Origin: a phage
Direction: 5' to 3' (one strand)
DNA: 64,000 nucleotides
Sequence record: PX667085.1
Shown: positions 24,369 through 64,000 of the stretch, piece after piece
How the letters are laid out: every line of letters starts with the position of its first letter
Position numbering within the stretch: the first letter of the stretch is position 1
Notes under the pieces: model-generated
Told to the model about the DNA's origin: nothing
Seen by the model: only the letters and a program-made list of their open reading frames with translations
Database searches by the model: none
Program-made: the position numbers and the translations under genes

Positions 24369-24818
24369 TCATGATTGAGTTCCTTTTTGTTTTTCAATAG
24401 CTGCACGAATTTCTGCTAAAGGTTCTGCTACCAAGTCTTCAACTTCTTGGATTTGTTCATTCATCACATCACGAACCATTTGAATACGCTCTTCAAGGGA
24501 AACAGCAAGTTCATCTGCATAAGCCATATTAAGAACGTGGTAGAAATTTTCTTGTGCACTTAAAGCACCAGATAACAAATAATCCTGATCTTCCTCTGGT
24601 AAAAGCATGTGTTGCTCATATTCAGCAAAAGTGTTTTTGTTAATCTCAAGCAAAGCACCCATCATAACATCATACTGATAATCTTTATGACCAGGGTTGT
24701 TTAAAATAACATCTTCAAAGATATTAAGAAGAATCTTAGTAACAAAAGCATTGTTTTCGGCACCTTCCATCTGACGGATTACCGTGATTACTTCTTTTTC
24801 TTTAGCGTTTTGGCTCAT
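24369..24818 (-). CDS. hypothetical protein
   Basis: 149-aa acidic ORF. Confidence 0.55.
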   Translation of the reverse strand: MSQNAKEKEVITVIRQMEGAENNAFVTKILLNIFEDVILNNPGHKDYQYDVMMGALLEINKNTFAEYEQHMLLPEEDQDYLLSGALSAQENFYHVLNMAYADELAVSLEERIQMVRDVMNEQIQEVEDLVAEPLAEIRAAIEKQKGTQS

Positions 24819-25008
24819 AGTGTTTCTCCTCTGATTCTATTTGGATATAACCTGTGGTTTTGCACGGGTTACACTCGTAAATTTGACCTACGTCCGCCAT
24901 AACATATCCTGCACCACCACAATAGGGGCAAGGCATAGGAGGACAAGGTATGGACGTAGTGATTGTTACGACATTATCAATTTCCAACATTTTCGCCATT
25001 ACTACCAT
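24802..25008 (-). CDS. small zinc-ribbon protein
   Basis: CPYCGG...CNPCKTTG. Confidence 0.5.
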   Translation of the reverse strand: MVVMAKMLEIDNVVTITTSIPCPPMPCPYCGGAGYVMADVGQIYECNPCKTTGYIQIESEEKHYEPKR

Positions 25009-25250
25009 TCCGCTATTAACGTCAAACCAAGTGCATCGTTAAAACGCTCAACATTTGAGTATAGGTATGGAGGGGTTATTTGCTCTAAAATTTGTGCTGC
25101 TTCCACTTGGTGTTCTATGTTTTGAGAAGTTCGGGCATAAACTAAGACACCCATTTTATTCAAAATAAAAACAGAATCAGACCCATCCAGCTTATCAACG
25201 GCTGCATACATTTTAGTCATATCTTCTCCTGGATTACCATTCAGCAACAA
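25002..25250 (-). CDS. hypothetical protein
   Basis: 82-aa ORF. Confidence 0.5.
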   Translation of the reverse strand: MLLNGNPGEDMTKMYAAVDKLDGSDSVFILNKMGVLVYARTSQNIEHQVEAAQILEQITPPYLYSNVERFNDALGLTLIAEW

Positions 25251-25449
25251 GACTAGGATTCATAGCAAAAGCTTTGAAAGTTGTTATGTCATGACTAATA
25301 TTAAAACTAACACCTTTTACTTTCTCTAGTATTTGAACTTTTGTCTCTCCGTCCCACGGTAGTATGATAACACCATCTCCTGTGATCAACCACCAATGGT
25401 TCTCTCCATCTCGTGAATCTTTTGCTTTGTATAGAAAATTGGAACTCAT
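25234..25449 (-). CDS. hypothetical protein
   Basis: 71-aa ORF with RBS AGGAGGA. Confidence 0.5.
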   Translation of the reverse strand: MSSNFLYKAKDSRDGENHWWLITGDGVIILPWDGETKVQILEKVKGVSFNISHDITTFKAFAMNPSLVAEW

Positions 25450-25650
25450 TCTTCCTCCTGTTCGGTATTATTCACCTGTGAGACACAATGTAACACAAGC
25501 TTTGTGAGTTTGTCAAGGATCTAATTACATTCTACAGAAGAAGAGGGTTAATAACTATAGGAATAGTCTTACTATAGGTGCAATACTAGTTAAGACTTAG
25601 ATTGATAGGTAAGACTTATCTTAAACAGATAATTGATAGGTGAATCAGCA

Positions 25651-25679
25651 TTGACTTTTTCAAAAAAATATGGTACCCT
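25651..25679 (+). promoter_or_regulatory. promoter-like module TTGACT-17-TACCCT, copy 1 of a duplicated ~65-bp element
   Basis: Same element recurs at 63724-63752; followed by short palindrome and conserved CGAGCGATAGCGAGTA. Confidence 0.45.
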
Positions 25680-25809
25680 AAACATATGTTTACGAGCGAT
25701 AGCGAGTAGTAGATTTCTATATAATAATGTTTCATGTTACTCACGATAGTTAGGTATGAAACGTAAGTGAAGGTAGATAAACTATGATCATCTATCTACC
25801 ATCTATTAA

Positions 25810-26019
25810 TCAATATAGATCTAATGTTAGACTAACAGTTATCCAACAAACAATAGCAGTCCATATAACAAGTAATGATCTACAAACTACATCCCATTCA
25901 AATACATTGTATGTTAACCATTCTCCCATCACAACAGAAGAACCCAACCAACATCCAACAACAACTATAATCCAATAAAAGAATCCTACAGTAGAGTATA
26001 CAGCAAAAGCTTTTAACAT
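25810..26019 (-). CDS. small hydrophobic membrane protein
   Basis: 69 aa, mostly hydrophobic; RBS GGAGGAAAG. Confidence 0.5.
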   Translation of the reverse strand: MLKAFAVYSTVGFFYWIIVVVGCWLGSSVVMGEWLTYNVFEWDVVCRSLLVIWTAIVCWITVSLTLDLY

Positions 26020-26432
26020 CTTTCCTCCAGAAGTTGTTCAACAGTTTGACGAGTATGATTGTCCCAGTAAACCTTAGTGAAGTCAAGAGTTCCTTGTTCG
26101 TTTCTCTTAGTTTCGAAGAAGTATCCGCCTTCTCTTTCTACTCTGTCTCTAATGTGCTCTATAAGGTGCTTTTTACAAGATGCTGATAAACAATAGTCAT
26201 ACTCCCCACGAAGCAATGCTATAGCTGCAAGTCTGTTATCACCAACTTGAGATATTGTCCAAGAAAGCATACTACCTTCTATACCTAAAGGTGTTTGTCG
26301 AATGGAATATCCACCATGCCGACTGATAGAAATTATGGCAAGTGGTTCTCCTGTTAGGGATCTTCCTAATGCACCTTCTGTTGGACTTCCTTCAATAACA
26401 CGTTTGAAAAAAGCTTTGATCTTACCTAACAT
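26013..26432 (-). CDS. hypothetical protein
   Basis: 139-aa ORF. Confidence 0.5.
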   Translation of the reverse strand: MLGKIKAFFKRVIEGSPTEGALGRSLTGEPLAIISISRHGGYSIRQTPLGIEGSMLSWTISQVGDNRLAAIALLRGEYDYCLSASCKKHLIEHIRDRVEREGGYFFETKRNEQGTLDFTKVYWDNHTRQTVEQLLEERC

Positions 26433-26576
26433 AAGTCCCCCTTAAAAACTTACTTGTTTAAAGTATCTCTTACTTGTTCTGCTTGACGTTTAGTAATAAA
26501 AGTCCCAACCGAAACGTTAAATTCATTGACTACAGAGAACGATCCATCACGATTCTCACGAATATTAAACAATTTC

Positions 26577-26780
26577 TTACTCATTTCTACCTCCTTCGAT
26601 GCTTTGTGCCGTACCATCCCAAGCCATTAGAATATTTGCCAATAGTTCACGAGGCTCTTTAAACCAAACTTCCATTTCATCAAGAATCTCGTCCGTGTCG
26701 TAAGTATAACCTGGAACACCAAGTTCGCATTTCTTAAGATAGCTTTCTAACCAGCGGTGATAATTCTTAACCCCATTCAT
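26577..26780 (-). CDS. hypothetical protein
   Basis: 67-aa ORF. Confidence 0.4.
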   Translation of the reverse strand: MNGVKNYHRWLESYLKKCELGVPGYTYDTDEILDEMEVWFKEPRELLANILMAWDGTAQSIEGGRNE

Positions 26781-27107
26781 ACTGTGCTACCTTTTCTTTT
26801 ACCCAATCTACACGATCTTTATCATAATGTTGAGTGCCAAGGAAAAGACCATTGTGGAAACTTTCCTCACCGAAAGGATAAATTGGATCTAAACCATCTT
26901 CTTCAAACAACATTTTTAATCGATTTGATGTAGATTTCTTAGTTTCTGAGTTGTAGTTTGTGGTTATAAGCCAATCTTCCAAACAACGACACAAACCTTG
27001 ACGAGAATCCCAAGGAAAAACACAATCTCCGACAGGAGCTTGTTCCGCCCATTTCAACCAGCCTTTAAAAAAGTTATACAGTATATAGTCTTCAGTGTAA
27101 TACATTA
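26767..27107 (-). CDS. paralog-family protein A (GLC / PFx / WVKEK motifs)
   Basis: Shares FxxW...GLCxCL...YPF...DRVDWVKEKV with six other ORFs; start at ATG after AAGGAGGAG. Confidence 0.55.
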
Positions 27108-40559: not shown

Positions 40560-42030
40560 CCATCTTTCATGGCAATCATCAATCACCAACATCATACGAT
40601 CAATCTTCGGCAATTACAATCGAATTATCATAGGGGATTCCTATCAATTATCCTATATATACCGATTATTTTTGACACCCCATTCTTGTATAAAAAGTAA
40701 CCCAAAATATCTACGGGGAGAGATTATTTCGACACACCCTGTTTCATGGCAATCACGGCAAGAATATCTAATAGAATCAATATGATATGGCAAAAATCAT
40801 GGCGTATACGTAAGAAGTGCTTAACGCGAATTTTCGGGCCGTCAGGTCCACGCAGCGACAATTCCCAAATATCATGCGAATGAGAATAATTATCATTCGT
40901 ATTCAATGACTTATGCAAGGCTCATGCCAACGTAGCGACAAGGTGGGCCACTCGATTATAAATCACACAAACACTTATTTATCAATGGCTTGGCAACTTC
41001 ATCATATGACGGAACAATGTCAACTAATCCCGCTCATGACAAGCAGACTATTATTTATATGAGAATGATTATTATTTAAACGTTTATTAACATAAAAACT
41101 AAAATAAATCAAGATTATTCTGATTTTATTTACGTTTAAGAGAAGATGCTCAACATCCTACCGGATCGCCGTTGGCAATCCTCGGATATTTACGCCCCCA
41201 TGATTAAGGTTTATCTCTTTCTTAGTGCTCAACATTCCCGCCCGTGGCGGTAACATTTCGCCCCCAAAATTATTGACTTTTATTCTATTATGTGCATAGT
41301 GTGCAATGTATCGGAATGATGATAATCATCCTCCCATTGCCCCCAATAATTATTGCCATGCTAATGATTTCATATTGTAACCATTACAATGATTATTGTT
41401 ATTGCGCTAATGTTATGATCTTGGTAATTACATATAATGCTAATAATAAGCCAGCGCAATAAGTGTAAGCGTCATTACGCTTGCAATTATTGCAAGCTAC
41501 GCAGTAACAAGAAATAACCATCACCGATGGTTATGATTGTTGGGGTGTAGTTGGCTTATTATTAGCTCGCTATGTGTCCGGCATAGCGTGCTAATGATGA
41601 TCCTGGGAATGATTCGTTTTGTAATGATTTCATTCAGTCACTATTATGGCAATAGTTATTATTTTAATGGTTTCGTTTGTTATTGTTCGTTAGTTGGTTG
41701 TTTTGTCGTGTTATCGTTATCTTGCTTAGTATTCATCATGGTTTGATTGTTTGTCGTTATCAATCATCTTGCTATTATTCCTTTGATTATGATTAGTTTG
41801 CTTATTGTTTTAGGTTGTTGGTTAGTTAGTTGTTGCGAACTGTTATCAACATTATAGTTATGCGCTTATATTGCATATATAATCATGTATAGATGATAAT
41901 GGTTATCATTGCACTAGAAAGGAGGTAAAAGGGTGTTTTTGATGGTTTGTTGTTGGTTGTTGATCGATTTTAACCGCTATAAATGGCTCTCTAACAGCCT
42001 GTTACCCTGGGAGGTATGGTTATTCGTTTA
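40560..42030. repeat. 1.4-kb non-coding palindrome- and repeat-rich region (candidate origin/regulatory hub)
   Basis: No convincing ORF; GAGAATrATTATyATT at 40882 and 41061, ATGATAATCAT-type palindromes, T/G-rich short repeats. Confidence 0.5.
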
Positions 42031-43398: not shown

Positions 43399-43416
43399 GA
43401 TATGACTCCTAAATCA

Positions 43417-43475
43417 GGCGGGAAACATTCCCGCCCTACGTGATAAATGATAATGTAAGCGTGATCCGGTGTCAA
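43417..43475 (-). promoter_or_regulatory. PeSL-like cassette: TTGACA-17-TATCAT promoter plus 5' stem-loop GGCGGGAA-ACA-TTCCCGCC
   Basis: -35 at 43470-43475, -10 at 43447-43452, hairpin at 43417-43435, RBS and ATG at 43398. Confidence 0.6.
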
Positions 43476-43787
43476 TAGGTAGGATTGTAAAGATTTGATA
43501 GTTTATCTCTTTGATGTTTTGTTGTTTGATAGATGTTAGCTATCAATATATAGCGGGGTCGTCCGGTGATTATCTTCCCCTGCTCCCAGGTGCCGCCCGT
43601 TCAATAAGTATAACAAAAAACAGGACAAAAACAAGCCCTGTTTATTTATCTTAAAACCAGTTGCCAACCGTTTCCAATAGGTCACTGACTACCAGGACAA
43701 CATTAATCAGCACATATTCGACCAGGAAGGGAATAAGCGCCAGCGTTGCTACTACGATCCCCATTGTGATGATTACCTTTCTCATGG

Positions 43788-44072
43788 TTAGCGGCTTACG
43801 TAAGCTTTACCGTTTACGGTCATCGGTATGGCCTCAAGGTCTGGATCTTCCTTAAGGTCGCGTGCAAGCTCACCGCAGCGGATACCCTCGAATCCGTAGT
43901 ACTCTGTTGTGCCGTCCTGGAAAGTTTTAGCGGCAAGGCATAGGCGATAATTAACGCCGATCCGGTTTATTGCGTTGATATCGGTTAACGTGATGGATTC
44001 AGGCAAATCATTAGCCATTACAGGCGTGTTAATACCAACAACCAGGGCAACTACTGCGATCATCTTTTTCAT
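43788..44072 (-). CDS. secreted/periplasmic protein (signal peptide)
   Basis: MKKMIAVVALVVGINTPVMA N-terminus. Confidence 0.5.
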   Translation of the reverse strand: MKKMIAVVALVVGINTPVMANDLPESITLTDINAINRIGVNYRLCLAAKTFQDGTTEYYGFEGIRCGELARDLKEDPDLEAIPMTVNGKAYVSR

Positions 44073-44127
44073 GTGTCTATCCTCTTCCTATTGCGTTTAA
44101 TGGGGGCGTTACCGCCCTGCTTATGGT

Positions 44128-44364
44128 TTATTGATTGATGTTATAATGAAAATTATTTTCTTCAATAGCTTTTAAAATAAAAGCCGTGATCGCTTTCGTG
44201 TCTACTTGTTCGAACGTATCAGAATAGCACCAATAATAATCATCCCCTACTTTCGGCGGGTAAACCTGGACAAGGAGATCGCCACCTGGTTGATCTATAA
44301 GCTCAACATGCAAGCCGGATGATTCAGCGGTTTTAACGGCGTTTAATACTGTTGCAATACTCAT
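44128..44364 (-). CDS. hypothetical protein
   Basis: 78-aa ORF; hairpin GGGGCG-TTG-CCGCCCC upstream. Confidence 0.5.
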   Translation of the reverse strand: MSIATVLNAVKTAESSGLHVELIDQPGGDLLVQVYPPKVGDDYYWCYSDTFEQVDTKAITAFILKAIEENNFHYNINQ

Positions 44365-44408
44365 AATCTTTCCCTTTCTGATGTGGGGCGTTGCCGCCCC
44401 TTTGTTGA

Positions 44409-44708
44409 TTAGATCGCTGTTTCCAGTAGTTCGGCTAACGTCTTACCGCCTGATAGTTGGTCTAACGTTTGCTCTTCTGGCAAGAAATTAGCTGATATCA
44501 AACCGACTTGATTCCCTTTGTGCCAATTAGCTTGACGGATGATTCCATCCTTTAAGGATTTTACCGCCATTGTGCAACCGTCGCCAAATGATTCATTTTT
44601 ATGATCCATCACTTCGTAAGCGCCCAGTTTGCTGCTGTTAGGCACCATTAACGCGAATACATCACCAACAACCAGTTTTTCTACGGTAACAATAGCGATA
44701 GTTTCCAT
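44409..44708 (-). CDS. hypothetical protein
   Basis: 99-aa ORF preceded by PeSL-like cassette. Confidence 0.5.
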   Translation of the reverse strand: METIAIVTVEKLVVGDVFALMVPNSSKLGAYEVMDHKNESFGDGCTMAVKSLKDGIIRQANWHKGNQVGLISANFLPEEQTLDQLSGGKTLAELLETAI

Positions 44709-44726
44709 TTTACTTTCCTCATTATT

Positions 44727-44783
44727 GGCGGCACCATTGCCGCCCTACGTGGTAAATATTAGCACACTGGCGATCTGTGTCAA
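44727..44783 (-). promoter_or_regulatory. PeSL-like cassette (TTGACA-16-TAATAT, hairpin GGCGGCA-CCAT-TGCCGCC)
   Basis: Hairpin at 44727-44744, -35 at 44778-44783. Confidence 0.6.
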
Positions 44784-44789
44784 TACTTT

Positions 44790-45176
44790 TTATTCAATAT
44801 AAATCAAATTATCTTCACCAATGTAAGCCGACACGTTCGGCATAAACTTAGCTGCATTGGTTAGGCGGTTGGCTGTGTTAGTGGTGTATATTTCAGGGCG
44901 ATCCCAAAAGCCTACGCCGTGACCGTTACGGGTAAAATGTAAATCATTCCCGATCTGGTTGGCTGTTGCGCCGTCGCTCATTGCCTCAGAGATAGCGGCA
45001 AGATTAGCATTAATAAAGGCTGTTACATCCTGGGCGATCCGTTCGTCCGCGCTAGGAGAAAAATCATAATCGTCTAAGTTATCAATAAAATTACCTTCAT
45101 GATCCCTTGCTGATTCAGCAAAAATAAAGGCTTCTTTATAGCCGTTGATGATTTCAATAATGATTTCTGTTTTCAT
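44790..45176 (-). CDS. hypothetical protein
   Basis: 128-aa ORF. Confidence 0.5.
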   Translation of the reverse strand: MKTEIIIEIINGYKEAFIFAESARDHEGNFIDNLDDYDFSPSADERIAQDVTAFINANLAAISEAMSDGATANQIGNDLHFTRNGHGVGFWDRPEIYTTNTANRLTNAAKFMPNVSAYIGEDNLIYIE

Positions 45177-45397
45177 GCTGTACGCTCGACAATAATAATA
45201 GTTTGCGGGATCTCGTTTTCTACTACTAACAAGGCTTTTTTCTGTGTGATAGATATTTTAACACGTTGTAAAGTAGCGGTAAAATCTTTCATTTCATTAT
45301 GCGCGGATTTAGTACAATGCCAGATCTCAGGCTTACCAACTTGTAAGCCGCGTAAAAATTCCGTTTTGCCTGTTTTGTTCGTGATCATTTGTTTCAC
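45173..45397 (-). CDS. hypothetical protein
   Basis: 74-aa ORF. Confidence 0.45.
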   Translation of the reverse strand: MKQMITNKTGKTEFLRGLQVGKPEIWHCTKSAHNEMKDFTATLQRVKISITQKKALLVVENEIPQTIIIVERTA

Positions 45398-45768
45398 CTT
45401 AACCGATACCGTGGGAAGATAGGATCATATTAGCCATAGTTGCAACTACTCCAACCGATAACGCCAGGCCAACCACTGCAACCGTGAAAATTTTCTCTAA
45501 CATGATTCTACCCTCATTAATGGGCGTTGCACCATTGCCCCGCCCTACGTAATACACTTTACTAGATAACAAATTATTGTCAAGCTTTATTTTACTTCCC
45601 AAACGGAAAATTCGCTGCCTGTTGGGATCATTTTTTTAATCTTGTTTGCTGCCGCTACCAGGTCAACGGCTTGTACTGTAATAATATAACCAATTGTCGA
45701 GGCTGTTGCGTTGAAAGTTTTCATTATATTGCCCTTTAATACAGGCGGGATTAATCCCGCCTTTTTGA

Positions 45769-45939
45769 TTACTCTTCATTATCGCCGTTATAGTATTCAA
45801 TGCCGTTTTCATCGGTTACGGTGATGTTAACGCCACCGATAGCAACACGATCACGGGCAAACGTCATAGCTTCATTTAAATCTTCAGACCAAAAAATATT
45901 GTGACCTTTGCGCGATACATAAAACATAGTCGGGATCAT
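45769..45939 (-). CDS. hypothetical small protein (57 aa)
   Basis: Table ORF 45769..46023 trimmed to ATG downstream of hairpin 45963-45983. Confidence 0.45.
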   Translation of the reverse strand: MIPTMFYVSRKGHNIFWSEDLNEAMTFARDRVAIGGVNITVTDENGIEYYNGDNEE

Positions 45940-46024
45940 GATTTGTTTCTCTTCTGTTATGAGCGGTGGACCATTCCGCCGCCCTATGTGGTAAACTTTA
46001 CTACGTTGTTTGCCTGCTGTCAAA

Positions 46025-46309
46025 CTATTTTTTAATGTTTTGCCCTACAAAATCGATCACTTCCTTAAGCTGTCTCTCTGTCATGATCGTACCTGGTAAC
46101 TCTTCTTTAATTTCTTCCGGTAAATAGATATTACCGCGCCAGGTTAACAAACAACCGTTTTGATCTTCGCAGATAGAATAAGAAAACATCCACTCGCAAT
46201 CATTTTCAAGCTCCCAAAAACACAAAAAGTCTTCTTTCCCTAAGTTTTCAACGGTTAAACATAATCCGCGACGTGCTGCATAATTAGTTAGGCTTTTTGT
46301 GATTTTCAT
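46025..46309 (-). CDS. hypothetical protein
   Basis: Table ORF trimmed to MKITKSL start below hairpin at 46331-46346. Confidence 0.5.
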   Translation of the reverse strand: MKITKSLTNYAARRGLCLTVENLGKEDFLCFWELENDCEWMFSYSICEDQNGCLLTWRGNIYLPEEIKEELPGTIMTERQLKEVIDFVGQNIKK

Positions 46310-46507
46310 GATTTTTCTCTCTTCTTGTGAGCGGCACCATTGCCGCCCTACAAGATACATATTACCAGATTAAGCGGACTTGTCAAACTATTTTTTCTTT
46401 TTCTTTGCTTTCAATCGTCTAAGGTTACGGCTGGACTTATTGCGCAAGGCGCTTAGATCGTCGTACCCTTTCCATGCTTGCATATCTTTCGGATTCATGT
46501 TATCCCC

Positions 46508-46669
46508 TTACTTGTTAGCCGGATCATATACCAGGACCGCGCCGCTTGCTTTCACGCTTTCCGCTTCATAGTTGCGCAGATCGTTTTCTGTAAGATTGAG
46601 CGCGATCACTTCCTCGATCTCAACGCCAGCGGCAAGGGCGATCTCTTTGATAATATCTGTTGTTTTCAT
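46508..46669 (-). CDS. hypothetical small protein
   Basis: ATG (MKTTDII) after AAGGTG; table start lies in upstream gene. Confidence 0.4.
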   Translation of the reverse strand: MKTTDIIKEIALAAGVEIEEVIALNLTENDLRNYEAESVKASGAVLVYDPANK

Positions 46670-46897
46670 GGTGTGCACCTTATAAGATGATTGATAAGAT
46701 AGTGACAACGAAAGCGATTATACTGATGGCAAATGTCATCTTTTTACCTTCGGATACTGCCGGATTTTCTACCGTGTATTCTACTGTGTACTTGCTCATC
46801 GTGTAATCCTCTCGTTTGCTTTGGGAACTATTCCCGCCGCCCTATGAATTAAATATACACTATCTCAAAATGATTGCAAGCCTTTTTCTAAATTACT

Positions 46898-47182
46898 TTA
46901 TTCAGTAAACAAACCATCATTTACAACGGCGGCGATGATCTCCCGTGCCATTGATTCAGGGAAAGGGGCGCTATAGTCCTGGCTTGTCTCATCGGTATCG
47001 GTGATCCAATGATAAGCTAACGAGTAAAAGCCTTTACTAACTGTTTTCAGTGAGATGATGATCACTCGGTCAAGCTTATTGGTGAATGTTGCCGTTAATG
47101 TGTTACCCTCCTGCGTCATGTTGGACAAGTAAGCGAGATCATTAATCAGGGAAAACATTAGCACGGTGTTAGCTTTACTCAT
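46898..47182 (-). CDS. hypothetical protein
   Basis: Trimmed to MSKANTV start below hairpin 47203-47218. Confidence 0.5.
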   Translation of the reverse strand: MSKANTVLMFSLINDLAYLSNMTQEGNTLTATFTNKLDRVIIISLKTVSKGFYSLAYHWITDTDETSQDYSAPFPESMAREIIAAVVNDGLFTE

Positions 47183-47253
47183 GATTGCATCCTCAAAGGG
47201 GCGCGGCACTATTGCCGCCCTACACGATAACTATAACACAATGTAAAACAGGG

Positions 47254-47460
47254 TCAACCTTTATTTTTCCACGGTGTCAGCTTGTTAATCATTGGTGATA
47301 AATAGCGTTTACCAACGTAAAACAGTACGCCAACTGATGCAACGGCGGCGACCTCATGCATAGCCGACGGGAAACGGGTATCATAATAAGATCCAATAAT
47401 AGCAATAGCGGCAACGGCTGCAACGTCGATAATGATTTTCTCTTGTTTTGCGGTGATCAT
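47254..47460 (-). CDS. small membrane protein
   Basis: IIIDVAAVAAIAIIGSYY hydrophobic segment; hairpin 47483-47497 upstream. Confidence 0.5.
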   Translation of the reverse strand: MITAKQEKIIIDVAAVAAIAIIGSYYDTRFPSAMHEVAAVASVGVLFYVGKRYLSPMINKLTPWKNKG

Positions 47461-47545
47461 AGTATTTACCTTTTTGTATGGTGGGGAACTATTCCCCGCC
47501 TGATGTAATACAGTTTAACAGGTCCGGTTATGGTGTCAACCACTT

Positions 47546-47731
47546 TTAAAGATATTTTATGCTAATGACGTTTTCAGGTTTTACCTTGTTATGATGTGCA
47601 TCAACATAGATCAAACCATCGTCAGAAAAGCCCAGGATCACGCCCTGCGCGATAAAACCGTACTCGTCACGGTAACGCACGGCTATTTTTAATGTTGCGT
47701 TGTAGGCTGTTTTAAGCTCGTTTAAAGTCAT
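47546..47731 (-). CDS. hypothetical protein
   Basis: 61-aa ORF. Confidence 0.45.
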   Translation of the reverse strand: MTLNELKTAYNATLKIAVRYRDEYGFIAQGVILGFSDDGLIYVDAHHNKVKPENVISIKYL

Positions 47732-47758
47732 TTTTGTTTATCCTCTACATGTAAAAAG

Positions 47759-47781
47759 AAAGGGCGCTTGATGCGCCCTTG
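47759..47781 (-). terminator. intrinsic terminator (minus strand)
   Basis: AAGGGCGCATCAAGCGCCCTT hairpin followed by TTTCTTTTT on minus strand. Confidence 0.55.
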
Positions 47782-48012
47782 TTATGTTAATCCTCTAAAT
47801 CCATCCAATTATATTTGTCACTCTTCCCGCGCTTTGTTTTATTACGCTTGTCACCTTTGCGGATCACTTCCTCGTTCCAGGCCTTGCGGATCTTGGAAGA
47901 TTGAATTTTTTCTGCGCGATTAGATGTATTCATTTTGTTTCCTCTTTATATGAGCGGCACCATTGCCGCTATATTGTTAATTTAAACTGTTTTGTAAAAT
48001 TGTCAAGGTTTA

Positions 48013-48366
48013 TCATTCATAAGAGCAAGCAAGGATCACGCCTGCAATATAAAGCCAATAATTTTCCCTTTCTCGTTGGATTTTATCATCGCTGCTATTC
48101 TCTTTAATGTATCCCCAGGATGTTAACAAGCGATCAATTTCCCAATATTCGAAAGCTATATTAATATCTGATGGCAAACCTTGTAACCATGATGCAAGTG
48201 CTTTAACAATACTATAATTAAAACGTGATTGATTATCAGGGTACCAGTACTCGGAATTAAAACGGCGCATCAATTCCGCGATCTTCTCTTTTTCGGTTGT
48301 AATACCGTAATCATTAAAATCGATAGCGGCAAGGATGTACTCTTTAATTGCATTTTGTGCTTTCAT
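48013..48366 (-). CDS. hypothetical protein
   Basis: 117-aa ORF; hairpin 48385-48401 upstream. Confidence 0.5.
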   Translation of the reverse strand: MKAQNAIKEYILAAIDFNDYGITTEKEKIAELMRRFNSEYWYPDNQSRFNYSIVKALASWLQGLPSDINIAFEYWEIDRLLTSWGYIKENSSDDKIQRERENYWLYIAGVILACSYE

Positions 48367-48444
48367 GGTCTTTCTCTCTTTTTAGCGGGAACTATTCCCG
48401 CCCTACGTGTAACAGTTTACTGAAAATTAAATCCGTGTCAAGCT

Positions 48445-48666
48445 TTATTTTGTTACTACCATTTGGTACCCTGTTTCAATGTTAGTAAATACTGTTATCC
48501 CGTCCTGGCGTTCACTCATTAGCATACAAGGCGCTAACATCCTTTCTACTGCCTTGCACTCATTGTAAACGGCGGTTATGTCTCCTGCGGCCTTGTCTTC
48601 TGTGGTGAATGTATCGTTTATGTAAACTTGACTAGCGACAACGGCGACAATAGCGAAAGTGATCAT
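48445..48666 (-). CDS. hypothetical protein
   Basis: 73-aa ORF. Confidence 0.45.
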   Translation of the reverse strand: MITFAIVAVVASQVYINDTFTTEDKAAGDITAVYNECKAVERMLAPCMLMSERQDGITVFTNIETGYQMVVTK

Positions 48667-48739
48667 GATATTTTTCTCTTTATGTGTTTCTATTAGTTGA
48701 TATTACAGCAATTCGCAGATTATTTTTTAGCAATTCGTG

Positions 48740-48958
48740 CTATTTACTCATAACAGTATCGAAAACAAATTTTTCTTTGTTGTCAAAGCTCACGTATCCG
48801 ATTCTACCACGCAAGCCGCAAGTAGTGCCGTATTCGTAACCGTCAAGACCTTTAACCTTCCAATCCACGCCCATTAAAACCGCATTATATTTCTGACCAA
48901 CTACAAACGCGCCACCAGTTGATTCAATGCAAACAACTTTAATTTTACGGATTGCCAT
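48740..48958 (-). CDS. hypothetical protein
   Basis: 72-aa ORF. Confidence 0.45.
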   Translation of the reverse strand: MAIRKIKVVCIESTGGAFVVGQKYNAVLMGVDWKVKGLDGYEYGTTCGLRGRIGYVSFDNKEKFVFDTVMSK

Positions 48959-49296
48959 TTTCTTTCTCTCTTTCTGGTGATTGGTTTCTCTTCTCTATAG
49001 CGCCCATTGTAAGGCGCTATAACGAAAAGTCAACGATTATTTTTTAAGGCTTAAAGTACCTAACTTGTCAGCATGACGCAGACCAGGGAAGATCCATTTG
49101 CCTGACTCATCTTTCACCGGGGCTTTAAGCGTAGCGCCCAGGTTGGCGGCGTTAACTTTACGTGCAACGTTGCGAGCGGCTTCACGGGTAGCGAAAGTGA
49201 TCATGGTGTTTTCCTCTTCTCTTTGTTAGGCGGTGGACCATTCCGCCGCCTTGATGTAATACAGTTTACTTTATTTTATTAAGATTGCAAGCGGTT

Positions 49297-49512
49297 TTAT
49301 GAAATAATTGTCAAAGTAAAATCATAAGACTGATTTAATTTATATTGTACTTTATTGCCGTAGTAGTCACCTTTACGTAAAGATCCGCGAATACCTATCA
49401 CATCCTTTACATCTTTAAGATTTTTTACGCCTGTAATGTCTTTATTGAAATACTCGTCATCTGAAAATAAAACTTGACTTGCATTTTTTAACAGTGTACG
49501 GATATTAGCCAT
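49297..49512 (-). CDS. hypothetical protein
   Basis: 71-aa ORF preceded by PeSL-like cassette. Confidence 0.5.
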   Translation of the reverse strand: MANIRTLLKNASQVLFSDDEYFNKDITGVKNLKDVKDVIGIRGSLRKGDYYGNKVQYKLNQSYDFTLTIIS

Positions 49513-49537
49513 CGTGATAATCTCTCTTCTGTTGTGA

Positions 49538-49593
49538 GCGGCACTATTGCCGCCCTACGTAATACAGTTTACTCTTTTTCTTTCCGGTGTCAA
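49538..49593 (-). promoter_or_regulatory. PeSL-like cassette (TTGACA-16-TAAACT, hairpin GCGGCA-CTAT-TGCCGC)
   Basis: Hairpin 49538-49553, -35 at 49588-49593. Confidence 0.6.
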
Positions 49594-49602
49594 CAATCTT
49601 TT

Positions 49603-49830
49603 TCAGATTAATTCATCCAGGCATAACAGGCGATCAACGTTGAGATCGGTTAGGCTGATGGTTGGCACCTGGTAGGATTCGATGTACTCAACGCTTGTAT
49701 ATTCCCCAAAATTAGCAATAGCCCATTTATTCAAGATCTCACATACATCATTAATCTTTTTGTTTGTTACAACTGCAATGACCTGGGAACTGCCAACGGT
49801 GCCGGATACGCGAACAATATTGATAGCCAT
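49603..49830 (-). CDS. hypothetical protein
   Basis: 75-aa ORF; hairpin 49852-49872 upstream. Confidence 0.5.
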   Translation of the reverse strand: MAINIVRVSGTVGSSQVIAVVTNKKINDVCEILNKWAIANFGEYTSVEYIESYQVPTISLTDLNVDRLLCLDELI

Positions 49831-49920
49831 AATCTTTAATCTCTCTGTTTTGGCGGGAAACCACTTCCCGCCCTATGTGATACATCTTACACTAATTTTA
49901 AACGTTGTCAACTGTTTTTA

Positions 49921-50160
49921 TTACATTCCAACCATCGCGGCACGGATCGCAGTAGTGCTATATTTGAAACCGTCTGGCGTTTTATCTTGTCCAGTTTGTT
50001 CCAGAAAAAGCATCATATCCCGCGCCGCATCATTACGATTAGCATTAGCGTTAATAAAATCTTGGGCCAACCGGTATAACGATTCATCGTTATTAATCCA
50101 AAGGCTTACATTCCAATGAGTTTTGTTTTTGTGACCGTTGTACATTTTAGATTTAGCCAT
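49921..50160 (-). CDS. hypothetical protein
   Basis: 79-aa ORF; hairpin 50185-50201 upstream. Confidence 0.5.
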   Translation of the reverse strand: MAKSKMYNGHKNKTHWNVSLWINNDESLYRLAQDFINANANRNDAARDMMLFLEQTGQDKTPDGFKYSTTAIRAAMVGM

Positions 50161-50249
50161 GATTTTTCTCTCTTTTTCAGTGAGGCGGGAAGTGTTCCCG
50201 CTCTCTATGTAATACAGTTTACTCTTTTTATTCGTGCTGTCAATGCTTT

Positions 50250-50615
50250 TTATAAATCTTTTTTACGTTTTACATCGCTCGCATGACTGTATACAGTGAT
50301 CCCATTGTCACGGCAAAAACGGGAAAGATACGCGCCGCGTGAAAACTCTTTACCTTCCATATTAATAACCTTGCTAAATTCTTCCAGGGCGACGGTATCA
50401 AAATGATCACCATAGCCATATTGAAACGGAACGTTAACCACCTCGATCAGTTTACCGCCGATCTCAACGTCAACCATTAAAGAAAAATATGTGTTACCGT
50501 AGGACTGTTGAAACCAGCGACGGGCGCTAATGTGCACCGCTTCAATGCTGGATAATTCAATTTTAGCCGTGTTAGCCAGGGTAGCATAAGCGGAAACATT
50601 GATATTAATAGCCAT
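50250..50615 (-). CDS. hypothetical protein
   Basis: 121-aa ORF; hairpin 50643-50655 upstream. Confidence 0.5.
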   Translation of the reverse strand: MAININVSAYATLANTAKIELSSIEAVHISARRWFQQSYGNTYFSLMVDVEIGGKLIEVVNVPFQYGYGDHFDTVALEEFSKVINMEGKEFSRGAYLSRFCRDNGITVYSHASDVKRKKDL

Positions 50616-50912
50616 GATGATAATCTCTCTTTTTGGTTAGTGGGAAGTATTCCCGATAAAAGTTATTATGCTTATACTATCACTCATTGTCAATAGTATA
50701 AGACTAAAACTTTTAACGATAATCGTTATAGGCTTTATTGACCTGGCGAATGTAACATTCGAAAGCAAGATCAATGTATTCGTATTCACGCACATAATCA
50801 CCATAGGTCACTACATACATTTTTAAAGTTTCCTCATAAGCCAGGAGGATCGAATCTAAACCTATAATCTCAGTTTTTGCAATGATAGCCATGATGTTAA
50901 CCTTTTATTGTT

Positions 50913-50969
50913 GGCGGCACCATTGCCGCCCTACGTGATAAACTATACCAGAAGTTTAAACAGTGTCAA
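50913..50969 (-). promoter_or_regulatory. PeSL-like cassette (hairpin GGCGGCA-CCAT-TGCCGCC, -35 TTGACA)
   Basis: Hairpin 50913-50930, -35 at 50964-50969; precedes short ORF about 50700-50893. Confidence 0.55.
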
Positions 50970-50975
50970 CCGTTT

Positions 50976-51338
50976 TTATTCGTAAATTTTACCGCTTTCG
51001 GCCCATACCATAACGCGGCGCATACTATCCCAAGTGTTTTGATCCAGGTTTAATCCGTGCAATTCTTCGGTACTTCCCAGACCAGGTACCGCCTTGTTGT
51101 AAGTTGCATATAAGCGCCCTTGATACTCATACGCCAGGGTGAGATCCGTTTGAATCATCTTTTTAAGCATAGCATTAAGCATCATATTAGCGGCATGTTG
51201 ATCACGTTTTAGCGGTAACATATCAATAAGGGCGCGATAAGCTGAAACATGAATATCAACCGTTTCACGTGGTAAATTTTTCATCTCATCGCGGAAAGAT
51301 ACCAGATTAAACATGATAGTATTGATTTGCTTGCTCAT
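50976..51338 (-). CDS. hypothetical protein
   Basis: 120-aa ORF; hairpin 51360-51381 upstream. Confidence 0.5.
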   Translation of the reverse strand: MSKQINTIMFNLVSFRDEMKNLPRETVDIHVSAYRALIDMLPLKRDQHAANMMLNAMLKKMIQTDLTLAYEYQGRLYATYNKAVPGLGSTEELHGLNLDQNTWDSMRRVMVWAESGKIYE

Positions 51339-51607
51339 TGTGTTACCCTTTTTTGTTTTGGCGGGGAAGTATTCCGCCGCCCTATGTGATACATCTTATC
51401 AGATTAAAAAACGTTGTCAAGAATATTTTTTAGAAAATAATAGCCGCTACTACAACCCAAAATGGAACGGCGAAAATGAGAGCGTTAATCGTTCCAACCG
51501 TCAAGCTATTTTCTTTATTAATCATTGTAAGCCTCTTGCATAATTTCACTATGAGCGGCACCATTGCCGCCCTACGTGGTAAATATTATGCCAGTGGCGG
51601 CGATATG

Positions 51608-52174
51608 TCAAAGACTATTTTCAAAGTTTTCTAGTGCGATCCTTTTTTCTTCCTCTGTCGGCTGATAATCAGGAAAAGCATCAACACACAACAACGGCGG
51701 GATCTCTTCGTACTCTTCCTCTTCCGTTGTCTCCTCGTCTTCCTCCTGGGCTATGGCTGCAATTTTGGCTAATTTTCTTTCGGCTTGAATCAATTTACCA
51801 TCAAGTACGTTTTTTGCCATGTTGTAAGCGGTCCAGGTGATGCGCTTACTTTCCAGGGCCTGATCGAGCGCCGCTATCTTGCTGGGGTATTCATCCAGGA
51901 CACGAAAAGCCGGATCAATTTTGTACAAAGGATTATCTTTCGCGCCGTCGCTCGCATCTTCCGCACTGGATAAATCAGCGTTACCATTTGCCAGCCAGCC
52001 AGGGCGCACATAACGCGCTTTTACGTTGCCGTTACTACGTGCTAACCTGTTACCTATTTGCTCACCGCTATATCCCGTGGATTCATCGATAAGATGATCG
52101 GGAATGATGCGCGGATCATCTGCTTCATGTTTTACCCAAGACTGGATCACATATTCGCGGCCCATATTAACCAC
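51608..52174 (-). CDS. hypothetical protein with acidic C-terminal region
   Basis: 188-aa ORF. Confidence 0.55.
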   Translation of the reverse strand: MVNMGREYVIQSWVKHEADDPRIIPDHLIDESTGYSGEQIGNRLARSNGNVKARYVRPGWLANGNADLSSAEDASDGAKDNPLYKIDPAFRVLDEYPSKIAALDQALESKRITWTAYNMAKNVLDGKLIQAERKLAKIAAIAQEEDEETTEEEEYEEIPPLLCVDAFPDYQPTEEEKRIALENFENSL

Positions 52175-52424
52175 CTTTTTTCAACAATTGGCATACTTTG
52201 AAAAGACTTGCTGAATCCTTGCAAGGGTAGAAAGATGTACGATAATCACGTACGCCAACCTTGCGGATCTCGATGTTTTCGCATGTTGTTTGATCAAAGA
52301 TATTTATTTCATCACGCCCCCTTATATAAACATAGTGGGGATGTATTAACGCATATTTTGCTAATCTGTAAAAAGCGTTATCTTTGAACGCGATCACGTG
52401 ACCTTTTAATTTGATGTAAAACAT
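52167..52424 (-). CDS. hypothetical protein
   Basis: 85-aa ORF; hairpin 52443-52459 upstream. Confidence 0.5.
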   Translation of the reverse strand: MFYIKLKGHVIAFKDNAFYRLAKYALIHPHYVYIRGRDEINIFDQTTCENIEIRKVGVRDYRTSFYPCKDSASLFKVCQLLKKGG

Positions 52425-52500
52425 TCTACCACCTTACAAATAGCGGGAACTATTCCCGCTTTATGTAACATATTAACAAATTATTCGTTAATGTCAAGCT

Positions 52501-52773
52501 TTAAAGCAAAAACGCTACATCTTGCGCTTTTAGTGTAGTATCAACCATTTTTGGGCTTTTATAATCAACAAAGCGCGCGGTTTTTTCAATAGCAAAACCG
52601 AGATAATCTTGTTTATTGAATTTACATTCTTTCTTAAATGTTTCCCGCGCCACGGTGATCGCTGCGTCCAGGGATAAACGCCCGTCAATGTTGATATTTG
52701 CGAAAGATCCGCCACCGCTCATAGGTTTACCAGTGGTGCCAGCTACGATCATTGTTGCGCTATATGATGCCAT
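52501..52773 (-). CDS. hypothetical protein
   Basis: Table ORF trimmed to MASYSAT start below hairpin. Confidence 0.5.
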   Translation of the reverse strand: MASYSATMIVAGTTGKPMSGGGSFANINIDGRLSLDAAITVARETFKKECKFNKQDYLGFAIEKTARFVDYKSPKMVDTTLKAQDVAFLL

Positions 52774-52795
52774 GATGATAATCTCTCTGTTGTGA

Positions 52796-52856
52796 GCGGC
52801 TGGACCATTCCGCCGCCCTATGTGGTACATCTTATCAGGTTGTTGTTTGTTGTCAA
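52796..52856 (-). promoter_or_regulatory. PeSL-like cassette (hairpin GCGGCTGGA-CCA-TTCCGCCGC, -35 TTGACA)
   Basis: Hairpin 52796-52816, -35 at 52851-52856. Confidence 0.55.
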
Positions 52857-52862
52857 TACTTT

Positions 52863-53060
52863 TTATTCTATTCCTGCAATTTGATTAACGCGCTTGCATT
52901 TTGTAGCGTGCTGGTCTTCTGTAATGACTCCCATTTCTAACAGGGAATCAATGAAAGATAAAACCGTTTCATGATCATCCTGGGGATGACTGAACTCAGT
53001 AAAACCGTTTACTATTACGTTGATTTGTCCAGCTTTCGCCACAATATGCAATGTTGCCAT
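52863..53060 (-). CDS. hypothetical protein
   Basis: 65-aa ORF, last gene of the array. Confidence 0.5.
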   Translation of the reverse strand: MATLHIVAKAGQINVIVNGFTEFSHPQDDHETVLSFIDSLLEMGVITEDQHATKCKRVNQIAGIE

Positions 53061-53964: not shown

Positions 53965-53980
53965 CCCCACCTGCATAAAT

Positions 53981-54188
53981 TTTTGTAAACTTTAAATTTT
54001 GCTTTTGTACTTTCATTTTTGTAAAAGCAAAAAAACTTTAAATACTGTGGGCGCGCAAAATTTTTAAAATTTTCCTTGACTTTTGAGTTTTGTTTTGTAT
54101 CTAACATTTTAAGATAATTTTCCTAAACTTTAAATTTTGGTTTTCAACTTTCACTTTTGTAAATTCTTAAAAAGTTTAAATAATTTGA
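53981..54188. repeat. two ~65-bp AT-rich direct repeats
   Basis: AAACTTTAAATTTTGsTTTT..ACTTTCAyTTTTGTAAA occurs at about 53981 and 54122. Confidence 0.5.
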
Positions 54189-54405
54189 GGGATTTTTGAG
54201 ATAATAGGTAGTGGAAATTTGAGATAACCTTTAATCTTATTGGTAGACCTTCAGGAACTCACCTAAATCGAATCCTAGTGATGCAAACTGAAAAAGATAA
54301 GTGTTTGTATAAGACAAAATAACAGGCTCTCTACGGTGCTGTAGGAGCCTTATTTCTGTGCTACAAAGTGACACCTTTGTTCTAAAAATGAAAAAAGTTA
54401 AAATA

Positions 54406-54948
54406 TCACAAATATCGTCTTTGCGGTATTTTGTCTGGGAAAAGTATTTCGATCAGTTTGTTATGATATTTGCCTAAAAGATTCTGCCCTTTCCAGGTGG
54501 CAGGGTTTAGCACCCCTGGTTCATACATCCCCATTCCAATTCCGTAAACCTTATCGTAGGGGCTTGCTTCAACAAACGTTTTGTATTGGTAAAGGTGTAA
54601 GTCTGCATACAAATCTGGATTCTGTACATATTTCAAGCATAAACCTCGCATAACAATACGCTCACGGTTCTCTTCCCATACGTTGTTATCAAAATCCGAC
54701 ACTGCCCTACCCATACGTTTGTAATAAGCTTGGATCTTCTCATCTTTCCGTATCAAACTATGAGTCAGAATAGCCTGTGCAGTGTTGTGGTCATTAAAAA
54801 GCAAAGCTTTACGCCACATCATGTATTGTTCGACACAATTAAATGTTTGATTGTAACCTGGTTCGGTTTCTGTAAAGGGTGCAATATACCAATTACTAAA
54901 CACATCTTTATGTGAAAAGAAGAATACATAATCATCAGTTATTCGCAT
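54406..54948 (-). CDS. NADAR-family (YbiA-like, DUF1768) protein
   Basis: VFFFSHKDVFSNWY, EQYMMWRKALLF and YGIGMG motifs. Confidence 0.7.
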   Translation of the reverse strand: MRITDDYVFFFSHKDVFSNWYIAPFTETEPGYNQTFNCVEQYMMWRKALLFNDHNTAQAILTHSLIRKDEKIQAYYKRMGRAVSDFDNNVWEENRERIVMRGLCLKYVQNPDLYADLHLYQYKTFVEASPYDKVYGIGMGMYEPGVLNPATWKGQNLLGKYHNKLIEILFPDKIPQRRYL

Positions 54949-63719: not shown

Positions 63720-63723
63720 GTGT

Positions 63724-63752
63724 TGACTTTTTTCAAAAAATATGCTACCCTA
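63724..63752 (+). promoter_or_regulatory. promoter-like module TTGACT-17-TACCCT, copy 2 of duplicated element
   Basis: Near-identical to 25651-25679; followed by CCC-GAA-GGG hairpin and CGAGCGATAGCGAGTA. Confidence 0.5.
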
Positions 63753-63895
63753 ACCCCGAAGGGTCGAGCGATAGCGAGTATAGATTATGTAATAGATTAA
63801 TCTCTATCGTTAGATGTTCGAAGAACAGAGATTTAAGTACTTGTTCTTATCGGTAGATGATCGTAAGATCAAGAACAATAATAGGAGAGTGTGTT

Positions 63896-64000
63896 ATGTT
63901 AGTCAGTGAAATACTACCTGACTCTAATGGTAATCAGATCACTATTGATTGGTTTCCTGGTACTGGTACACTAGATCTAACTGCTGAATGGTCTGGTGAT
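63896..64000 (+). CDS. hypothetical protein, 5' portion (continues past window end)
   Basis: ATG after AGGAGAG; frame open to window end. Confidence 0.4.
   Translation, partial: MLVSEILPDSNGNQITIDWFPGTGTLDLTAEWSGD

Follow-up and report, generated by a model that had tools for sequence, protein, structure and literature searches.

Bacteriophage lambda OOP RNA and the sar RNA of phage P22 are short antisense RNAs that are transcribed from promoters of their own inside oppositely oriented operons; OOP overlaps cII. At the 5' ends of mRNAs, stem-loops of the ompA type stabilize messages of Escherichia coli. In T4-type phages, promoters and stem-loops are combined in the PeSL elements, which are present in tens of copies and whose G/C-rich stem-loops act as terminators (PMC2839356; PMC4122927). 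A further kind of small fold, the mini-hairpin DNA motif GCGNAGC or GCGNNAGC (Hirao), occurs at the primase sites of G4 and St-1, at ssiA of RSF1010 (CCGAAGG) and in the promoters of the N4 virion polymerase, and is much less stable in its RNA versions (PMC13037366). Here we analyze a module of promoter elements and hairpins that is found twice in a 64,000-nt stretch of phage DNA (sequence record PX667085.1; the whole stretch is referred to as the window) and that is itself not described in the literature searched. One copy (copy 1) lies in a gap of a leftward gene array, and the other (copy 2) precedes a gene.

We propose that copy 1 is a gene for a non-coding or cis-antisense RNA of ~115-125 nt that has its promoter and 5' hairpin in common with an mRNA leader, a reading to which we assign a probability of about 0.5. 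A preliminary description of this DNA had already suggested an antisense or non-coding RNA for copy 1, and the suggestion fits a unit that is free of open reading frames (ORFs), opposed to its neighbors and conserved above the adjacent coding DNA. The closest functional likeness would be to short antisense RNAs such as lambda OOP: a sigma-70-type promoter, placed in a gap of a polycistronic array and facing against it with no ORF behind, would yield a hairpin-rich RNA ahead of the 3' end of a convergent gene. The two differ in that they have no sequence relationship, that copy 1 is without a clean intrinsic terminator, that an mRNA leader in another part of the genome carries a second copy of its promoter and 5' end, and that the predicted copy 1 RNA ends ~10 nt before the convergent coding sequence, where OOP reaches into its target. 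The likeness is one of arrangement; OOP itself acts in an RNase III-dependent way.

Results

A sigma-70-type module in two copies

The module has the architecture TTGACT-N17-TGnTACCCT, followed ~13 nt further downstream by an invariant block (Table 1). Both copies lie on the plus strand, copy 1 at 25651-25716 and copy 2 at 63723-63787, 38,072 bp apart; the duplication had been reported correctly in the preliminary description, as had the location of copy 2, apart from its start coordinate, which is 63723 and not 63724. With up to three mismatches allowed, the 31-nt promoter part matches only at the two copies (chance expectation 0.00), and the 16-nt block CGAGCGATAGCGAGTA has exactly two exact occurrences where 0.08 would be expected by chance. 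Identity between the copies extends as far as TAGATT, interrupted by a 1-nt indel, before fading. A scan of the full ~151-kb genome, assembled from the window and positions 1-130000 of Escherichia phage Mt1B1_P17, found no third copy at up to eight mismatches. The module is therefore a two-copy element, and the earlier proposal that it defines a middle or late promoter class does not hold.

All sequence features of a sigma-70 extended -10 promoter are present, in agreement with the earlier reading of the module as a promoter, and are conserved in 32 distinct homologues. The -35 element TTGACT matches the consensus at five of six positions and is separated from the -10 box by a 17-bp spacer in both copies, which in copy 1 consists of a T-tract and an A-tract; the 32 homologues carry TTGAC or TTTAC at equal spacing, and their consensus, gtaTTGACTTTt..taaaAAacATGCTACCCTAA, keeps all elements at fixed distances. 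The -10 region reads TGG-TACCCT in one copy and TGC-TACCCT in the other. Among the homologues the invariance of TGnTACCCTAA is by construction, as the pattern with which they were collected required it. From the usual distance of 7 nt after the -10 box, transcription is predicted to start at ~25686 in copy 1 and at ~63758 in copy 2.

Table 1. Positions of the features of the two module copies and their surroundings in the window.
Feature	Position	Strand	Details
Copy 1 promoter	25651-25679	+	-35 TTGACT 25651-25656; TG 25671-25672; -10 TACCCT 25674-25679
Copy 1 start-site palindrome	25679-25692	+	TAAACATATGTTTA; perfect, 14 nt; ~-7 to +7 around the predicted start
Copy 1 hairpin H1	25690-25709	+	UUA-CGAGC-GAUA-GCGAG-UAG; tandem G·A pairs; core GCGATAGC
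Copy 1 hairpin H2	25727-25764	+	GTTTCATG ... TATGAAAC; loop containing ATGTTACTCAC; from fold
Copy 1 hairpin H3	25772-25800	+	GGTAGATA-13 nt-TATCTACC; no clean U-tract on either strand
Copy 2 promoter	63723-63751	+	-35 TTGACT; 17-nt spacer; TG; -10 TACCCT 63746-63751
Copy 2 start-site inverted repeat	63753-63764	+	ACCC-CGAA-GGGT; contains mini-hairpin sequence CCGAAGG
Copy 2 block hairpin	63765-63778	+	CGAGC-GAUA-GCGAG
Copy 2 structured 5' leader	63779-63898	+	followed by AGGAG 63883-63887 and ATG 63896
Leader hairpin	63816-63826	+	GTTC-GAA-GAAC
Leader stem, 8 bp	63841-63878	+	TTGTTCTT/AAGAACAA
Leader hairpin	63859-63870	+	GATC-GTAA-GATC
Divergent sigma-70-like promoter	25487-25516	-	TTGACA-N18-TACATT; TG before -10; ahead of gene 25234-25449
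Repeat cluster	25554-25641	+	short direct and inverted repeats between the two divergent promoters
Direct repeat	25554, 25571	+	ACTATAGG, twice
Direct repeat	25587, 25606	+	TAG(T/G)TAAGACTTA, twice
Direct repeat	25601, 25632	+	ATTGATAGGT, twice

The conserved block is a covarying hairpin

Inspection of the conserved CGAGCG block revealed a covarying hairpin (H1), which is absent from the preliminary description and is a better-supported structure than the palindrome noted there. Its imperfect stem consists of the pairs C-G, G·A, A·G, G-C and C-G and closes on a loop of GAUA, GAA or GAAA. Across 19 distinct sequences the flanking pair covaries, being C-G in 10 and A-U in 7, and the next outer pair is mostly U·G or U-A. 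The cells of the stem are paired in 89.5% of cases, as against 29-48% when the partner is slid, and a covariation score as high as the observed one did not arise in any of 500 shuffles. Since only one strand can form the U·G wobbles and tandem G·A pairs, it is the plus strand that folds. In copy 2 the flanking position is an unpaired U×U, and a single-sequence fold pairs the block with 63803-63813 instead.

In both predicted transcripts H1 starts ~4-8 nt from the 5' end, a geometry that resembles that of ompA-type stem-loops and that is also found at a family of early promoters in the same phage (see below). Its stem differs from these in being short and in having tandem G·A pairs. The nearly invariant sequence suggests specific recognition rather than generic protection, and this 20-nt hairpin is probably recognized by a specific factor. 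We also considered the module hairpins as a minus-strand terminator and rejected this candidate: they lie at least 10 nt from the T-run, and on the minus strand C·T would stand in place of the G·A pairs.

The palindromes that had been noted between promoter and block, one in each copy, are present as described. In composition-matched shuffles, the stem length seen is reached in a fraction of 0.028 for copy 1 and 0.015 for copy 2. Related modules have AAAC/GTTT, AACC/GGTT, ACCC/GGGT, ACCT/AGGT or TAATA/TATTA at this position, so that the earlier statement that structure is kept while sequence differs is true of several lineages; it does not extend to all, as only 6 of 17 variants beat shuffles at <0.05 and one large group is without the repeat. 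The repeat straddles the predicted +1, spanning ~-6 to +7. With a start 7 nt after the -10 box its left arm lies upstream of the transcript, and the palindrome thus cannot be a complete 5' RNA hairpin.

Copy 1 heads a conserved unit without an ORF

Copy 1 occupies a 360-bp gap between the minus-strand genes 25234-25449 and 25810-26019, within a long leftward array of small genes of unknown function; the gap is unannotated in both annotated records compared, Mt1B1_P17 and ESCO13. Earlier, the copy was said to point into the minus-strand block at its 3' end. It is indeed convergent with gene 25810-26019, but the block does not end there, and copy 1 sits ~3.3 kb, or 10 genes, inside its distal part. 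The plus-strand ORF at 25784-25978, noted earlier as a weak downstream candidate, exists but is not a gene of its own: it is the shadow of the minus-strand gene, which matches PHROG 24123 with E=4e-46.

Comparison with phage phiWec179 shows that the copy 1 unit (25594-25800) is 79% identical, the adjacent homologous gene 49% identical and the other flank unrelated. Conservation above that of flanking coding DNA indicates a non-coding unit under its own selection. Nucleotide similarity to phiWec179 stops at 25800, which is the end of hairpin H3, and H3 probably bounds the unit on its 3' side and/or terminates the convergent gene. It is a good hairpin, but its plus-strand tail, AUCUAUUAAUC, is no U-tract. 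An RNA ending at H3 would leave 10 nt to the stop codon at 25810, and one that reads through would overlap the gene.

Between H1 and H3 lies a further hairpin, H2, which is common to the copy 1 units of five lineages (the window, phiWec179, the contigs of group A, Justusliebigvirus and contig IMG753). Its stem shows compensatory changes, with U-A, C-G or G-C at one position, together with G·U pairs; this covariation is weaker evidence than that for H1 because the arms were chosen by eye. A structural alignment of whole copy 1 units across groups was dropped because their 3' parts are too divergent, and only H1 and H2 are comparable.

The two types of unit recur in related phages

Homologues were gathered by BLAST and by pattern scans of phage records, IMG/VR and metagenomes; loose scans of the latter two gave mostly chance hits and unrelated REP-like repeats with GAGCGAAGCGAG, and only hits with the full TGnTACCCTAA context were kept. 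This yielded 45 true instances of the module, 37 of them unique, from the Stephanstirmvirinae and uncultured relatives. They share one layout: a TTGAC- or TTTAC-like -35 element, TGnTACCCTAA, a variable segment of 9-16 nt and (C/A)CGAGCGA(T/A/-)AGCGAG(G/T). The REP-like elements come from environmental metagenomes (loci L259, L275, L284, L300, L238 and L288 among them) and are inverted repeats that enclose GAGCGAAGCGAG, one such repeat being GTCATCCCGAGCGAAGCGAGGGATC.

Each of the six genome-length sequences, comprising five contigs and the genome record of Citrobacter phage Tr1 and representing five lineages, has one unit of the copy 1 type and one of the copy 2 type. In the copy 2 type the module leads into a structured leader of 100-150 nt, and a ribosome-binding site and the ATG of a gene invariably come after it. 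This gene encodes an 88-residue membrane protein in Justusliebigvirus, Tr1 and related contigs; in Phapecoctavirus it encodes an unrelated 65-residue protein, and the 88-residue membrane protein is absent from the window genome.

Related ORF-less units of the copy 1 type are present in at least four lineages besides that of the window. Within 115-200 nt after the module they contain no ORF longer than 27 codons, and their tiny ORFs are without a ribosome-binding site; in L296, a close relative of L280, a stop at codon 6 cuts this ORF to five codons. The unit is opposed to its neighboring genes in the window, phiWec179, Tr1, a Justusliebigvirus contig and contig IMG441, and the flanking genes are non-homologous between lineages; for the contigs of group A, orientation was read from the convergent downstream gene only. 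The units of group B (L258, L306, L261, L244, L273, L303) have a conserved 16-codon ORF ~105 nt after the module (MSVNVSDLTYLSQSIP and variants), which has no ribosome-binding site, and a second promoter ~200 nt downstream that is followed by an 82-residue acidic protein (MPNMSYCMFENTSND...) absent from the window genome.

The leader of copy 2

In the window, copy 2 precedes a plus-strand gene, as had been noted, and the leader between them ends in a ribosome-binding sequence (Table 1). The product is a 65-residue protein of unknown function (PHROG 25113). The stretch 63816-63878 of this leader is crowded with small hairpins that are closed by C-G pairs and have GAA or GTAA loops. In phage PHB05 (NC_052652.1), the annotated 41-residue coding sequence JR317_gp201 (L004:2505-2630) starts at the TTG of the -35 element and is probably spurious, and an unannotated gene for the 88-residue membrane protein (MDVTTLRF...), with a good ribosome-binding site, lies at L004:2640-2906.

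Upstream repeats, a divergent promoter and neighboring genes

The short direct repeats that had been seen upstream of copy 1 are real, and they form a cluster that is a candidate regulator-binding region. A promoter-proximal motif resembling ATTGATAGG is also found upstream of the copy 1 modules of phiWec179, Tr1, Justusliebigvirus and the group A contigs. On the far side of the cluster, a minus-strand promoter that matches the consensus at 10 of 12 positions precedes an AGGAGG ribosome-binding site and an ATG. This makes the two promoters a divergent pair, of which copy 1 is one half, and the repeat cluster lies between them.

The region 24500-27000 is 99.8% identical to Mt1B1_P17 and at least 95% identical to ~65 phAPEC8-like genomes (Phapecoctavirus, Stephanstirmvirinae; ~150 kb). 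Phage records labelled Campylobacter, Acinetobacter and Pseudomonas also match the searched stretches of the E. coli phage or of the related Justusliebigvirus; these host labels look doubtful, one Pseudomonas-labelled record being 84% identical and the other mislabelled-looking records listed being 99-100% identical. Near copy 1, gp203 of Mt1B1_P17 (window ~24802-25008) is a 65-residue coding sequence that carries the RefSeq label 'DNA ligase', for which it is far too short; a full-length ATP-dependent ligase, gp264, is annotated elsewhere in that genome. The AT-richest stretches of the window are 41041-41449 and 53974-54423, with up to 85-90% per 40-bp window. The first of these falls approximately where the linear Mt1B1_P17 record has its gene-free ends and may be a genome terminus or other control region.

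Discussion

We suggest that host RNA polymerase starts transcription at both copies, which would be paralogous cassettes, each joining a sigma-70 extended -10 promoter to the 5'-proximal hairpin CGAGC-GA(U)A-GCGAG. Copy 2 would start an mRNA with a structured leader of ~135 nt. Copy 1 would start, from within a regulatory gap and against the leftward early-gene array, an ORF-less RNA that runs from ~25686 to 25800-25810 (~115-125 nt) and contains H1, H2 and H3. Being complementary to leftward read-through across the gap, such an RNA could act as a cis-antisense RNA. Copy 1 could also be a head-on transcription barrier between gene 25810-26019 and gene 25234-25449, which would have its own promoter at 25516, or could act through its conserved 5' hairpin and the loop of H2. 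The shared hairpin would confer the same 5'-end property on both RNAs, either protection from 5'-dependent decay or the binding of one common factor. It is also conceivable, though unlikely, that the copy 1 RNA is a decoy that combines the 5' hairpin of copy 2 with a mimic of its start-codon region and so titrates a common RNA-binding regulator. Beyond H3 the RNA, because it is untranslated and C-rich, would, we infer, be a natural substrate for Rho.

Several observations weigh against this proposal. The -10 box is weak, agreeing with the consensus at three of six positions, and for this reason a generic promoter scan misses the module. The apparent invariance of the block is partly an artefact, because most homologues were collected by a pattern that demanded it and left only an optional loop base free; copy 2 of Tr1, which was found by BLAST, has GCGAATGC instead. 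Folded singly, the sequences show no exceptional stability (z-scores of -1.0 and -1.4), the plus strand has no intrinsic terminator after copy 1, and the inverted repeat at the start site has no explanation in the model. Searches for a known or external counterpart were likewise negative: there was no Rfam match in the whole window at gathering thresholds, and at permissive thresholds the segment 25450-25900 gave only two chance matches to snoRNAs (E≈9); the longest complementarity to the phage genome, 13 nt, equalled that of shuffled queries; the copy 1 unit has no similarity to any complete E. coli genome; and the literature searched held no promoter study or transcriptome of Phapecoctavirus, Justusliebigvirus or Stephanstirmvirinae.

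The same searches, in which no tRNA or tmRNA turned up either, led us to reject a known RNA family and mimicry of the host, and no trans target is evident in the phage genome. A type I toxin-antitoxin pair of small membrane protein and convergent RNA was rejected as well, the convergent gene not being conserved between lineages.

Among alternative accounts, it is conceivable, though we doubt it, that copy 1 is the orphaned duplicate of a mobile cassette of the copy 2 kind that entered the leftward array as a PeSL element would, and that its gene has decayed and its RNA is functionless; the only effect of the promoter, if any, would then be transcriptional interference or insulation. The loop motif ATGTTACTCAC of copy 1 resembles the start-codon regions of copy 2, ATGTTAGTCAGTG in the window and GGATGTTACTACAC in PHB05, which suggests that copy 1 originated by duplication, and copy 1 of Tr1 keeps AGTGTGTTATG, similar to GGAGAGTGTGTTATG of the copy 2 unit of the window. 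In group B a downstream gene is still in place, copy 2 is joined to different genes in different genera, and PeSL elements provide a documented case of promoter-plus-stem-loop cassettes that mediate gene shuffling (PMC2839356; PMC4122927). A decaying remnant, however, would show none of the conservation seen here: gene-less copy 1 units persist in several diverged lineages, in a different neighborhood each time, they are better conserved than the coding DNA beside them, and their stems carry compensatory changes.

Comparison with the PeSL elements themselves gives a mixed result. Like them, the modules combine a promoter with a hairpin in a conserved unit of ~65-100 bp and lie among small ORFs, and, as would be expected of a shuffling module, the gene behind copy 2 is replaced between genera, a 65-residue protein in Phapecoctavirus standing against an 88-residue membrane protein in Justusliebigvirus and Tr1. 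Unlike PeSL elements, with their tens of copies, the module occurs exactly twice in ~151 kb, and its hairpins, with 4-8 pairs, a position downstream of the -10 box and no U-tract, are not terminating stem-loops.

A closer PeSL analogue exists in the same phage. At 43400-52900, on the minus strand, early promoters of the form TTGACA-N16/17-TAAnaT are followed by a conserved hairpin, TAGGGCGG(C)..(G)CCGCC, that begins ~10 nt after the -10 box. This PeSL-like family has at least 12 members, or ~20 by a looser count, and each heads one small ORF. With at least 12 early promoters so equipped, a promoter plus 5' hairpin is the house style of the phage.

An unlikely reading, which acts at the level of DNA, is that the modules are transcript-primed replication starts or another single-strand DNA initiation signal: the promoter would open the duplex and give a purine-rich transcript, the displaced plus strand would fold into very stable mini-hairpins (GCG-N(N)-AGC and CCGAAGG), and the two mini-hairpins would hold an R-loop, mark a priming site or recruit a primase or helicase loader, as may be compared with oriF, oriG and oriE of T4 and with the primase signals of G4 and RSF1010. 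A review reports such motifs from priming sites of phages and plasmids and from the promoter hairpins of N4 (PMC13037366), and the block cores of the module (GCGATAGC in the window, GCGAAGC or GCGAAAGC in relatives), like CCGAAGG in copy 2, match them. The rule GCG-N(N)-AGC is fitted by 19 of 19 block variants, at positions that the search pattern fixed by construction; copy 2 of Tr1 breaks it. The rule fits DNA better than RNA because GAUA is not a GNRA loop and the RNA versions are much less stable. An inverted repeat across +1 is also easier to explain in DNA, and a DNA signal would explain a gene-less copy that has iteron-like repeats before it and AT-rich DNA after it.

Against a DNA signal, C-GAA-G and GNRA-type loops run throughout the copy 2 mRNA leader, so that small hairpins of this sort are equally an RNA habit of the phage. 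The known mini-hairpins act in single-stranded DNA, whereas the module lies in double-stranded DNA and may be simply an RNA hairpin. Nor is there a GC-skew inflection at 25.6 kb, the skew simply following gene orientation, and the downstream AT-richness reaches only the 92nd-96th percentile. Calling a replication origin from base composition was dropped; these measures speak neither for nor against an origin.

That the module only resembles a promoter and in fact serves the binding of a protein to DNA, as an operator, recombination or packaging site would, is improbable. The spacer and discriminator are conserved far beyond what sigma-70 recognition needs, the -10 box is weak and short palindromes overlap +1, all in favor of such a site. 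Yet 32 variants jointly retain the -35 element, the 17-nt spacing, the TG and the T, A and T of the -10 box, copy 2 stands exactly where its gene needs a promoter, and the U·G wobbles, like the tandem G·A pairs, mark one particular strand as the one that folds. Improbable too, finally, is a micro-peptide translated from an ATG inside H2 (in the window MLLTIVRYET, 25735-25767): every lineage has an ATG at the H2 position and the 16-codon ORF of group B, MSVNVSDLTYLSQS(I/V/L)P, is conserved with changes that look synonymous, but the ATG lies within a hairpin stem without a ribosome-binding site, the lengths range from 5 to 27 codons with sequences unrelated between groups, and a stop at codon 6 interrupts L296 but not the closely related L280.

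The phAPEC8-like phages and their relatives are widely isolated as therapeutic agents against pathogenic E. coli. On the reading of copy 1 as an RNA gene, it would be the first candidate non-coding RNA gene for the Stephanstirmvirinae, with exact coordinates, and the two copies are predicted to be a pair of co-regulated start sites. Should the modules instead be DNA-level initiation signals, they would locate the replication origins of phAPEC8-like phages. As it stands, the element is well delimited and of an ordinary kind, predicted to be a phage promoter cassette and a small RNA.

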